DNA of 64,000 bases from Alphaproteobacteria bacterium. Its GTDB lineage: Bacteria; Pseudomonadota; Alphaproteobacteria; CAAHEQ01; UBA3637. Made by a program: the position numbers and the translations under genes. Shown piece by piece: positions 35,346 to 53,699 of the stretch (its first letter is position 1; each line of letters begins with the position of its first letter). The notes under the pieces are model-generated. The model was given only the letters and a program-made list of their open reading frames with translations. It was not told the DNA's origin and did not search any database. Where the stretch lies: assembly GCA_015062395.1 (NCBI GenBank), contig SUUS01000002.1:35028-99027 (forward strand), in the 5' to 3' direction.

Positions 35346-35374
35346 TTTACATCCTTTCTTAAACGGAGTATAAT
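35346..35374 (+). promoter_or_regulatory. Near-consensus sigma70 promoter (TTTACA-17-TATAAT) upstream of T4SS-like island
   Basis: -35 at 35346-35351, 17-nt spacer, -10 at 35369-35374. A GAGGGAGG RBS precedes the first island gene. Confidence 0.4.
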
Positions 35375-35409
35375 AAAAGAAATGATATTCAGTAGAGGGA
35401 GGAAAAGAA

Positions 35410-36111
35410 ATGCATTTGAAACATCTTTTAACATCTGTTTGTTTGGTTTTGGCATTGAATATAGGTGTTTGTAAACCTGTGTTGGCGCGTCATGTGGTTT
35501 CTGACCCAGCAGCGACGGCAATGTCAATACAAAACTTGGTTCAAGATATTTTGGCTGTTGTTAAGAAAATCGCTGATTTGAATGAGTTTATCAAGCGTAA
35601 TACTAGTCAAGGAAGTATTGGTGCTATAGCCAATAAATTGGACTTTTCAAAAATGCAAAAAGAAGTTTTGGATGCTGCAAAATCTACTGTTCCTGAAACC
35701 TTAAAAGATGTTGGGTTTGAAGATATGATGAAAGATACGCAACAAATGATGTCTTTCCTTAAGGAGGATTTGATGCTTCCTTTACAGTCTTCATCGCAAG
35801 AGGAAGCACTGACGGATACGCAAAAGCAAGAACGTCTGGAAAAACGTCAAGATGTTAAAAATACCGCGATTTCTGATGCTTATGCAACTGCTGTTGCGTA
35901 TTTAAACAGAAAAACAAAAGCTCAAGAAGAAATTGTTAATCCGACTAAAAAAGTGGCAGGTAGTGCAGATACCATTCATGCAAAAGAAGGGGCTGCAAAC
36001 GAAGCTGCTTTAGCGCGATTAAATGAAGGAATTGAACGCAATGCATTGTTGGCTGAACTTTTGAAATTGCGTGCTGCAGAAGCTTTGGGAAATATACCGT
36101 TGGATGGTTAA
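35410..36111 (+). CDS. Secreted alpha-helical protein, VirB5/TrbJ-like candidate (paralog a)
   Basis: Signal peptide. 233 aa. Helical, charged composition. Paralogous to the next ORF (VQDILAVVKK/VQEIIEVVQN; SIGAIANKLD/EIGAIMPKVID). Confidence 0.3.
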   Translation: MHLKHLLTSVCLVLALNIGVCKPVLARHVVSDPAATAMSIQNLVQDILAVVKKIADLNEFIKRNTSQGSIGAIANKLDFSKMQKEVLDAAKSTVPETLKDVGFEDMMKDTQQMMSFLKEDLMLPLQSSSQEEALTDTQKQERLEKRQDVKNTAISDAYATAVAYLNRKTKAQEEIVNPTKKVAGSADTIHAKEGAANEAALARLNEGIERNALLAELLKLRAAEALGNIPLDG

Positions 36112-36138
36112 ATAATCGAAGAGGAAAGGATATGCGCA

Positions 36139-36843
36139 ATGTTGAAAACAAAAACTTTTATTTCTTCTTTTCTTTTAGGCGTGGTTTTGACGGCTTCTCC
36201 TGCTTATGCTGTTGTTGATATCGTTAAATTGTTGCAACATACATTGCGAAATGTGCAGGAAATTATCGAAGTTGTTCAAAATGAATCATCATTAAAAGAA
36301 TCTACAAATTATTCAAAGTTGCAAGGTGAAATTGGTGCAATAATGCCCAAAGTCATTGATTTAGGTTCGAAAGTAAAAGACGCTTCTTTTACGCCTGTTT
36401 TGCCCAGTGAAATTCAAGGTTTGTTGGGTGATAAAGGAATGGCTGCAGTTCCTCAACTCCGTTCATTTTTATCTAAAGATTTAAAATCTATCAATGTTGG
36501 AGATGTTGTTGGACAACGTGATGCTTTAGCAGCAATTAGTGAACAGATGAATTTGGGTGGTATTGAAGCTTTTAAAAACGGAAAAGAAGCAATGGCATTG
36601 CTGAATAAAGCGCCCAATGAATTGATGCAACAGCTCAGTGTTGCAACGGGCGCGAAAGATATGCAAAACAAAATTACTCAAGAAACAGGAAATAGTATCC
36701 AAATTTTAAAAAGTGATATTGCGATTAATCAGCATTTGGCCAGAAAAATTGAAACGCTGGCTCAAAGTTTAAGATTGGATGTTAAAAAAGGATTGCAAGA
36801 GGCTGGTAAACAGCTTACAGAAAATACAGGAGGTCAACAATGA
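36139..36843 (+). CDS. Secreted alpha-helical protein, VirB5/TrbJ-like candidate (paralog b)
   Basis: Signal peptide MLKTKTFISSFLLGVVLTASPAYA. 234 aa. Paralog of 35410-36111. Confidence 0.3.
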   Translation: MLKTKTFISSFLLGVVLTASPAYAVVDIVKLLQHTLRNVQEIIEVVQNESSLKESTNYSKLQGEIGAIMPKVIDLGSKVKDASFTPVLPSEIQGLLGDKGMAAVPQLRSFLSKDLKSINVGDVVGQRDALAAISEQMNLGGIEAFKNGKEAMALLNKAPNELMQQLSVATGAKDMQNKITQETGNSIQILKSDIAINQHLARKIETLAQSLRLDVKKGLQEAGKQLTENTGGQQ

Positions 36844-52625: not shown

Positions 52626-52645
52626 GAAATAAATAGGGGGACACT

Positions 52646-53635
52646 ATGCCAGAGTTATCCATATCTGAAACATATAAGGTTTTAGAGTCGGCTTTGCGTC
52701 CTCTTTCTTATTGGTACAGCCAAGATCAAGTCGAAGAAGTCGCTGTTGACAGACCAGGCTATATTTGGTTGCGTTTGCGTGGTCGCAGAGAACATCCATG
52801 GCAAGAACAAGAAGATCCAAAATTAACACGTGAGTATTTAAATAATATCTTATATATTATTGCAAACAGTTATGATTATTCGTTTGAGCCAGTCGAAGGA
52901 ACACCTGTTGTTTACGCTACATTACCAGGAGGACATCGTTTTACAGGTATCAGTGGTCGTAATATCATGTACGATAATGAGGACTTGACGGGTGGCGTTG
53001 CCATGGCAATTCGTGTTTACAAAGAAGATACAGGTATTGGTTTTAGCGATTTTAAATTGGAACAAGGGCAGCGTTTACGTCCATTAAGTAAACTTTCTCA
53101 AGTTGAAGATCCAGATGATCCTTATGAGCGTTTGCTTCTTTCTATTCGAAAAGGGGAGCATATCTTAATCAGTGGTGGAACGGCAACGGGTAAAACGACA
53201 TTTTTGAATAATATGATTAAGTTGGTTGATGAACATAAAAGAATCATCACTGTTGAAGATACGCGCGAATTAATAGTTCCTCATAAAAACAGAGTTCATA
53301 TTGTATTGCCTCGTACAGATCAAACGAACAGCTTTTCATATCCACGTGTGATTGACTTGGTTGTGCGTTTTACGCCAGATGCGATTATTTGTGGGGAAAT
53401 TTCTATTTCCAATGCCAGTGCAATTTGGGAATTGATGGGGTCTGGTCACGAAAACTGTTTTGCAACAATTCACGCAGAAAGTGCTGAAGAAGCTTATAAA
53501 GCATTCGTTGCACGTATTATGCGTACATCACCGACGATTGACCGAGAAAAAACCCTGCGTGAAATGCGTGATAAATTACGTGTTGTTCAAATCAATCGAA
53601 ATGGCAACATTCGTGCTGTCACGAACATTACGTAA
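52646..53635 (+). CDS. virB11: VirB11-family secretion ATPase
   Basis: Walker A GGTATGKTT, Asp box TVEDTRELIV, Walker B DAIICGEIS, His box GHENCFATIHAES. 329 aa. Confidence 0.85.
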   Translation: MPELSISETYKVLESALRPLSYWYSQDQVEEVAVDRPGYIWLRLRGRREHPWQEQEDPKLTREYLNNILYIIANSYDYSFEPVEGTPVVYATLPGGHRFTGISGRNIMYDNEDLTGGVAMAIRVYKEDTGIGFSDFKLEQGQRLRPLSKLSQVEDPDDPYERLLLSIRKGEHILISGGTATGKTTFLNNMIKLVDEHKRIITVEDTRELIVPHKNRVHIVLPRTDQTNSFSYPRVIDLVVRFTPDAIICGEISISNASAIWELMGSGHENCFATIHAESAEEAYKAFVARIMRTSPTIDREKTLREMRDKLRVVQINRNGNIRAVTNIT

Positions 53636-53669
53636 TGTTGTATTTAAACGTTTAAATGGATTTAGTAAA

Positions 53670-53699
53670 ACAGCCCTTGTTTTGCAGGGGCTGTTTTTA
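53670..53699. terminator. Bidirectional rho-independent terminator between virB11 and typA
   Basis: Stem acagccc/gggctgt with loop ttgttttgcag, followed by T5. Confidence 0.5.

Follow-up and report, generated by a model that had tools for sequence, protein, structure and literature searches.

This study revealed that a block of eleven open reading frames (ORFs) in a 64,000-nucleotide stretch of contig SUUS01000002.1 from an Alphaproteobacteria bacterium (hereafter the window) is probably part of a vertically inherited type IV secretion system (T4SS) of the VirB/VirD4 type (P-type) that is divided over at least three chromosomal sites and carried by uncultured Alphaproteobacteria of the gut and rumen. 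The eleven ORFs, all on the plus strand, span positions 35410-53635. In the same lineage virD4 and a virB3-virB4 pair were found at loci of their own, and the system therefore appears to be split into at least three chromosomal loci. An earlier reading of the DNA letters (hereafter the sequence-only reading) had highlighted a T4SS lacking its ATPase and inner-membrane parts, an appearance that such a split would explain. Three features are new here, namely the conserved giant VirB10, the tandem arrangement of VirB5-like genes and an orphan partner protein of 642 amino acids (aa).

Core components of the secretion system

The block contains the set that marks a P-type T4SS, namely a VirB8/VirB9/VirB10 core together with VirB11, as judged by Pfam, NCBIfam and hhalign. 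Both the co-directional T4SS-like gene content and the order B8-B7-B8-B9-B10-B11, which the sequence-only reading had proposed, were borne out. The VirB11 ATPase (329 aa, 52646-53635) matched TIGR02788 with 149 bits as well as PF00437, and its PDB matches were the VirB11 structures 2gza and 1g6o. Its closest annotated relatives are encoded on three alphaproteobacterial plasmids (38-41% identity), canonical VirB11s reaching 33% at most. VirB8a (212 aa, 41589-42227) scored 22.7 bits against PF04335, for which the cut-off is 23.2; its identity was settled by profile-profile comparison, which matched it to VirB8b and to the plasmid VirB8 profiles at 99.7-99.9% (hhalign). VirB8b (253 aa, 42586-43347) matched PF04335 with 48 bits, and its top PDB match was the pKM101 conjugal transfer protein 5i97.

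Between the two VirB8 genes lies a 63-aa ORF (42376-42567) for a VirB7-like lipoprotein with an LMAC lipobox. It is approximately 60% identical between species and is homologous to the 58/68-aa ORF found at the VirB7 position of complete plasmid T4SSs (phmmer, E-value 1e-13). As the Shine-Dalgarno sequence fits the second ATG, at 42391, this is likely the true start, and the product would then have 58 aa, as in relatives. VirB9 (540 aa, 43437-45059) matched PF03524 with 48 bits and carries a C-terminal SPOR-like extension. The SPOR match itself is weak (18 bits), and PF05036 is recorded for many VirB9 orthologues; a literature search combining VirB9 and SPOR returned no papers.

With regard to distribution, a scan with a VirB9 alignment of one genome per GTDB species matched 148 species, and the loci of the best 80 were retrieved. 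Nearly all of these 80 are uncultured "Alphaproteobacteria bacterium" metagenome-assembled genomes (MAGs), from human, yak, sheep, goat, deer, rabbit and horse gut or rumen. Across these loci and other assemblies, the common order is secreted unknowns, a p5-like gene (p5 being the 642-aa orphan), VirB8a, VirB7, VirB8b, VirB9, giant VirB10 and VirB11. Both VirB8 genes are present in at least 71 of the 80 species loci. The exact VirB11 protein of the window also occurs on Joint Genome Institute (JGI) metagenome contigs. Three loci (L019, L021 and L022) are labelled Lactobacillales or Holdemanella biformis and carry the locus together with flanking surA, ksgA and folD; these labels probably reflect binning contamination in the public records.

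A giant VirB10

The most unusual feature of the block is the size of VirB10, which comprises 2488 aa (45159-52625). The TrbI domain (PF03743) occupies residues 2173-2366 and is followed by an acidic tail at the C-terminal end, and the sole membrane helix is N-terminal (residues 21-39). The approximately 2100 residues in between (about 45-2170) consist of beta-hairpin repeats, for which Pfam reported Bflower_2 (14 stretches), Bflower, DUF3659 and RHS/YD-like matches. When this beta-flower fold was reported, in 2023, no function was known for it (PMC10584680). A literature search combining VirB10 and beta-flower returned no papers.

VirB10 is complete in 69 of the 80 species loci, with lengths of 2085-2683 aa. 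In 70 species the repeats align collinearly, with 28-40% identity compared with 60% for the TrbI domain. Given this collinearity, we regard the repeat region as an old structure that has been maintained. Within the gene, a 237-bp repeat is present in 3.3 copies (50289-51073) and encodes three near-identical 79-aa units. On a contig from another sample, the allele is shorter by exactly one 79-aa unit and identical over the remaining 2409 aa. This difference, like that in p3 described below, may be genuine or may have arisen when repeats were collapsed by the assembler.

VirB5-like proteins and the orphan p5

Upstream of VirB8a lie five ORFs, p1 to p5, each with a signal peptide, for which Pfam, NCBIfam and PDB sequence searches found nothing. 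Pfam searches with 102 members of the p-protein families yielded scattered coiled-coil noise and one weak VirB5 match. Iterative hidden Markov model (HMM) searches were seeded with the Erythrobacter VirB5, which passes Pfam PF07996, or with its Microvirga counterpart. They recruited 118-141 ORFs, all in the accessory region 5' of VirB8a and including p1 and p3 of the window, and none of the approximately 1000 other ORFs of the related loci. The E-values were 1e-15 to 1e-23 for p1 (233 aa, 35410-36111) and 1e-11 to 1e-25 for p3 (679 aa, 36840-38879). In hhalign comparisons, the P1 family matched the VirB5 family at 97.5% (E-value 9e-12), and the family of the paralog p2 (234 aa, 36139-36843) matched P1 at 99.3% and VirB5 at 96.3%. 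The secreted helical protein p4 (261 aa, 38872-39657) belongs to a family of 62 members located next but one 5' of VirB8a, which matched P2 at 95%, P1 at 91% and VirB5 at 85%.

On these profile comparisons, we class the helical proteins p1 to p3 as divergent VirB5-like proteins, and p4 is probably a distant VirB5 relative. VirB5, the minor pilin of P-type T4SSs, is thus represented in the window by VirB5-like genes. The sequence-only reading had listed secreted helical paralogs here; their status as unknowns is not supported, since they are VirB5-like by profile comparison. In p3, the VirB5-like sequence is split by a Gly-rich repeat insert containing a 39-bp repeat in 7.3 copies (37502-37785), and the product has 653 aa in another sample compared with 679 aa in the window. 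On the minus strand, a Pro-rich 213-aa ORF (37328-37969) was rejected as a gene, being the antisense of the p3 Gly-rich repeats.

The secreted protein p5 (642 aa, 39654-41582) has no family match and is a lineage-specific partner of the cluster. Its gene is present in 61 of the 80 GTDB species loci and lies directly 5' of VirB8a in all 66 loci that carry the family; in a set of 1.84 billion proteins, this family numbers only 95 representatives. The hhalign profiles did not connect p5 with VirB5 or with the plasmid genes at the VirB6 position, and p5 was rejected as a counterpart of the latter by this comparison. Six long, distant relatives of p5 matched nothing in Pfam. The AlphaFold2 models of p1 (from an alignment of four window paralogs) and p5 (from a nine-sequence alignment) were unusable, and a Foldseek search with p5 against the PDB returned noise only.

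A deep sublineage (L085-L090) keeps B8a-B7-B8b-B9-B10-B11 and has no VirB5-like or p5 genes upstream. There, a DEAD-box helicase gene and an esterase-like gene directly adjoin VirB8a.

Components encoded at other loci

The sequence-only reading had reported that B2, B3, B4, B6, D4, a relaxase and an integrase are absent locally, and in the window this was indeed the case. Reference VirB2, VirB3, VirB4, VirD4 and VirB6-position genes gave no phmmer match in the window. When the plasmid components were used as queries, B7 to B11 were found in 82-87 of approximately 90 related loci, and B2, B3, B4 and the VirB6-position gene had no match in either the window or these loci. VirD4 gave one match among them, in L086, 7.5 kb upstream of the cluster on a 139-kb contig.

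This VirD4 has at least 1841 homologues with 60-99% identity, and their metagenome and MAG source types are those of VirB9. The few homologues with a source name are given as "MAG: Alphaproteobacteria bacterium". The virD4 gene sits among housekeeping genes in four distinct contexts (L093-L095, L096/L097, L183 and L184). VirD4 was also sought in the window's own JGI samples, and the JGI contigs bearing it all came from other samples.

A metagenome scan with a VirB4 alignment revealed an isolated virB3-virB4 pair in the housekeeping DNA of gut contigs with a low G+C content (GC, 0.34-0.45). The VirB4 of these contigs is 33-36% identical to plasmid VirB4 and scores above the cut-off of PF03135, and the pair is often divergent from gatCAB. 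In one contig (L130), three VirB2 genes precede virB3-virB4, with PF04956 above cut-off at 38 bits. Another of these contigs (L127) shares groES, groEL and approximately 300 nt upstream with the cluster-bearing L072 at 82-86% nucleotide identity, GroEL being 97% identical at the amino-acid level; by this similarity, L127 appears to be a congener of a cluster-bearing species. Other genes that flank virB3-virB4 have counterparts in the window or in cluster loci, with 50-67% identity. The sequence-only reading had suggested that the genome carries the rest of the system at other sites, on the pattern of the split rvh system of Rickettsiales, and these separate virD4 and virB3-virB4 loci, the latter with or without virB2, support that suggestion.

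Several further observations were made at these loci. Downstream of virD4, all four contexts show a gene for a 200-340-aa protein with a conserved MW(E/D)WS N-terminus, followed by one for a protein of approximately 145 aa (L093 12237-13284; L096 12311-13647; L183 4333-5507; L184 3390-4868). The pair was read and scanned in L093 and L096, and recognised by gene order and size in L183 and L184. The approximately 145-aa proteins of L093 and L096 gave weak SUKH/SMI1 matches under the cut-off (E-values 6e-5 and 2.5e-4). The two genes may encode a toxin and its immunity protein, or an adaptor of the coupling protein. Directly 5' of virD4, three of five contexts encode a conserved protein of approximately 360-430 aa with two transmembrane segments and no family (L093 8686-9987; L096 8708-9991; L086 2523-3590). 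In L093, it is adjoined by a 167-aa ORF with two transmembrane segments and a similar N-terminus.

Just 5' of the normal virB3-virB4 pair, three contigs (L122 3750-4925, L116 173-1348 and L135) carry an additional ORF of 392-399 aa that joins VirB3 to the N-terminal VirB4 domain, without the ATPase part; both domains were confirmed by Pfam in L122. Three metagenome contigs with a GC of approximately 0.49 (L113, L124 and L136) carry an unsplit operon comprising B2-B2-B3-B4-B5-like, an ORF of 846 to 896 aa, B7-B8-B9 and an ORF of 643 to 726 aa. This operon may be an intermediate between the plasmid systems and the split gut system.

Proposed function and alternative explanations

In the split system that we propose, the block would supply the outer-membrane core, made up of the lipoprotein VirB7, of VirB10 and of a VirB9 whose SPOR-like tail would bind peptidoglycan. 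To this it would add VirB11 as an ATPase, two VirB8 proteins as assembly factors, three to four VirB5-like proteins of the pilus-tip or adhesin type encoded in tandem, and p5. VirB3, VirB4 and the coupling protein VirD4 would come from the other loci, as would, in at least one contig, the VirB2 pilins. VirB4, VirB11 and VirD4 would power and load the channel, and the envelope-spanning part would be built from the block. As the repeats of VirB10 lie between its inner-membrane helix and its outer-membrane domain, the beta-hairpin region of approximately 2100 aa would be expected to give rise to a much larger assembly than usual in the periplasm or outer membrane. At the cell surface, the VirB5-like array would present variable proteins for contact. 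The analysis shows the gene identities, their conservation, the split layout within the lineage and the relationship to VirB5; from these we infer that the parts form a single machine, how the repeat region is placed in the envelope, and that effectors are translocated.

Several points weigh against this interpretation. The virB3-virB4 and virD4 loci were seen in relatives and not in the window's own genome, and VirB2 genes were seen in one contig only. For VirB6, neither the Rhizobium protein nor the plasmid genes at that position gave a match, and no VirB6-like polytopic protein or ORF was seen at any locus, including beside B4, D4 and B8; VirB1 was not searched for. The structure predictions for p5 and p1 both failed (pLDDT scores, predicted local distance difference test, of 56 and 44, respectively). 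Function as a secretion machine would follow from homology, and no effectors were identified.

Given that no relaxase was seen in the 10 kb around the cluster, the virD4 loci or the virB3-virB4 loci, the more likely use is the delivery of proteins on contact, be it to a host, a protist or a bacterium. That the split system still moves DNA, by conjugation, release or uptake, is unlikely. Descent from conjugative plasmid systems, or a sister relationship to them, would favour DNA transfer, as would the retention of VirD4. Against it, the same 10-kb surroundings hold no oriT-type genes either, a relaxase elsewhere being possible, and chromosomal scattering with an amplified VirB5 array is typical of host-interaction systems such as rvh (PMC2653234).

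An organelle used for adhesion only, similar to Trw of Bartonella and translocating no substrate, is improbable. The tandem VirB5-like array and a repeat-bearing component close to the surface are what such an organelle would be expected to have. However, Trw has no coupling protein, whereas VirD4 is strongly conserved here, as its 60-99% identity shows.

A self-sufficient apparatus centred on the outer-membrane complex and working without VirB4, VirB3, VirB6 and a coupling protein, the second option of the sequence-only reading, is very improbable. Among the approximately 90 loci, VirB4, VirB3 and VirB6 do not occur within 10 kb of the cluster, VirD4 does so in L086 only, and VirB6 was found at no locus, all of which would fit such an apparatus. 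Nevertheless, the lineage has conserved VirD4 and VirB3-VirB4 genes, belonging to this T4SS clade, at other sites on its chromosomes. To our knowledge, the VirB4 ATPase is universal in T4SSs, and we know of no channel partner for VirB11 alone without VirB4.

The sequence-only reading had also regarded the block as an island inserted between folD and typA. In favour of a genomic island of recent origin, or of the decaying remnant of an integrated conjugative element, are the closest complete relatives, which are plasmid conjugation systems with MobA/MobL relaxases, and the raw GC, which is slightly higher in the block than in the flanks. This GC excess is due to the Gly-rich coding repeats, and the GC at third codon positions is the same in the block (0.23-0.31) as in the flanks (0.20-0.30). 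No integrase or tRNA was found at the borders, and no att-like direct repeats flank the block. The ORFs are intact and collinear in the 80 retrieved species loci. Neither compositional bias, mobility genes or sites, nor a patchy distribution was observed. When the folD-typA junction was compared in these relatives, folD was upstream in 30 of the 80 loci and typA downstream in none, and the right junction is therefore specific to the window's species; an insertion is not supported by this comparison.

In 29 species, identity to the window is 58-76% for VirB9, 68-90% for VirB11 and 46-66% for folD, and the T4SS genes are thus more conserved than folD. The divergence of VirB9 follows that of folD (Spearman 0.60, p 6e-4), whereas that of VirB11 does not (Spearman 0.26, p 0.18). 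We therefore reject the inserted island, which, judged by composition, borders and divergence, has very little chance of being correct.

Returning to the split system, a broader proposal can be made, which we regard as tentative and, taken as a whole, rather doubtful. In these bacteria, which are abundant gut commensals, the beta-flower region of VirB10, the VirB5-like array and p5 might together form the outer complex of a T4SS, or an appendage on the cell surface, that is new in structure and greatly enlarged. Units of 237 bp and 39 bp, gained or lost in frame, would adjust or diversify it, comparable to CagY recombination in Helicobacter pylori, and the trio formed by VirD4, the protein encoded downstream of it and the SUKH-like protein would mark a first substrate or adaptor.

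Surroundings of the block

To the left of the block, Pfam identified lptG-lptD, surA, ksgA, a DUF167-like ORF and folD (34464-35336); to the right, on the opposite strand, it identified typA (53702-55525, minus strand) and xseB. The spacer between folD and p1 contains a promoter-like site on the plus strand, TTTACA-17-TATAAT (35346-35374), recognised by consensus match only. With 11 of 12 matches it is the top scorer in 34300-54000, the overall number of such sites being that expected from shuffled sequence. An AT-rich hairpin with a U-run on the plus strand (42249-42277; dG -18.1 kcal/mol, z -3.84), known as a sequence feature only, is a possible internal terminator or attenuator. With regard to the two transcription units that the sequence-only reading had derived from a promoter at 35346 and a terminator at 42252, the promoter is the best site of the region and the hairpin folds well, but the consensus terminator scan did not list the hairpin. 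A strong terminator-like hairpin with a 14-bp stem and a T-run (53667-53697, plus strand) lies in the gap between virB11 and typA.

A 23-nt A-rich motif, AAAAAGnTAAAAAAAATGCnTTA, occurs at 35327-35349 and 42292-42314 (87% identical), just 5' of both proposed transcription-unit starts. It may be a common UP-like or regulatory element, or its recurrence may be due to chance in AT-rich spacers.

Further to the left, a single 1078-aa ORF (28920-32156) joins an LptF/LptG permease domain (residues 7-355) to LptD (residues 410-1011), that is, an inner-membrane part to an outer-membrane part. As the identical product is found on 14 contigs from several samples, this fusion is not an error specific to the window. 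Positions 1-8000 contain podovirus-like prophage genes (ORFs 54-761, 843-1700, 1744-2322, 2322-4229 and 4842-6305). On another contig of the same population, the 487-aa prophage protein adjoins a head-tail connector, Bbp19, a T7-type scaffold, a capsid protein and a cell-wall hydrolase.

Comparison with known systems

Bacteria of this lineage occur widely in the guts of humans, ruminants, rabbits and horses; a literature search combining RF32 and T4SS returned no papers. A conserved T4SS scattered over the chromosome is a concrete candidate for the machine by which they interact with hosts or neighbours. It would also provide the beta-flower fold with a defined context, between the inner and outer membranes of a secretion system.

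The closest complete systems are the T4SSs of Microvirga pMVF16-3, an Erythrobacter aureus plasmid and Sphingosinicella p1, which come from free-living Alphaproteobacteria and are the nearest sequence relatives found for B7, B8, B9, B10, B11, D4 and B4. Their operons read B2-B3-B4-B5-x-B7-B8-B9-B10-B11-D4 and are accompanied by a MobA/MobL relaxase. They share the small lipoprotein and the long VirB9 with the window. Their gene at the VirB6 position encodes a VirB5-like domain without membrane spans other than the signal peptide, and they have no recognisable VirB6. In contrast to the window lineage, they are GC-rich and plasmid-borne and consist of one contiguous operon with a relaxase, one VirB8, one VirB5 and a VirB10 of 529-590 aa.

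The layout resembles that of the rvh T4SS, in which the exact order virB8-virB7-virB8-virB9-virB10-virB11 is found. Both systems are chromosomal and vertically inherited, and both combine scattered islets with a duplicated VirB8 and a B8-B7-B8-B9-B10-B11 block. The rvh genes of Rickettsiales lie in scattered chromosomal islets, VirB5 is missing, VirB6 has proliferated and virD4 adjoins virB11 (PMC2653234). Five large VirB6 genes follow virB3-virB4 in rvh, and VirB4 and VirB9 are duplicated. The window lineage, in contrast, has three to four VirB5-like genes, no VirB6 that was found and virD4 at a separate locus; typA, not virD4, comes after virB11, and VirB10 is five to six times longer than in rvh. 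The PDB and plasmid searches showed no rvh-specific affinity, and no VirB8 annotated as rickettsial was among the PDB matches. An "archipelago" layout of T4SS genes is thus not confined to Rickettsiales.

With Trw of Bartonella, the window shares the tandem amplification of surface or pilus genes, which in Trw include VirB5. The amplified units of Trw also include VirB2, VirB6 and VirB7, and Trw lacks VirD4, which is conserved in the window lineage.

The Cag T4SS of H. pylori offers an analogy only, and none of its specific components was recognised in the block. Among VirB10 orthologues, CagY is described as standing alone in its large region of repeats (PMC5954226), and the window likewise encodes a very large VirB10 orthologue with internal repeats. 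Cag has several VirB5-like surface proteins (CagL/CagI/CagH), to which the VirB5-like array of the window may be compared. In-frame differences in repeat number between samples, possibly an assembly artefact, occur in the window lineage. Unlike the motifs of CagY, the VirB10 repeats of the window are beta-hairpin (beta-flower) units, and unlike hypervariable repeats, they form a region that is collinear and conserved in 70 species. CagY is therefore not the only giant repeat-bearing VirB10.

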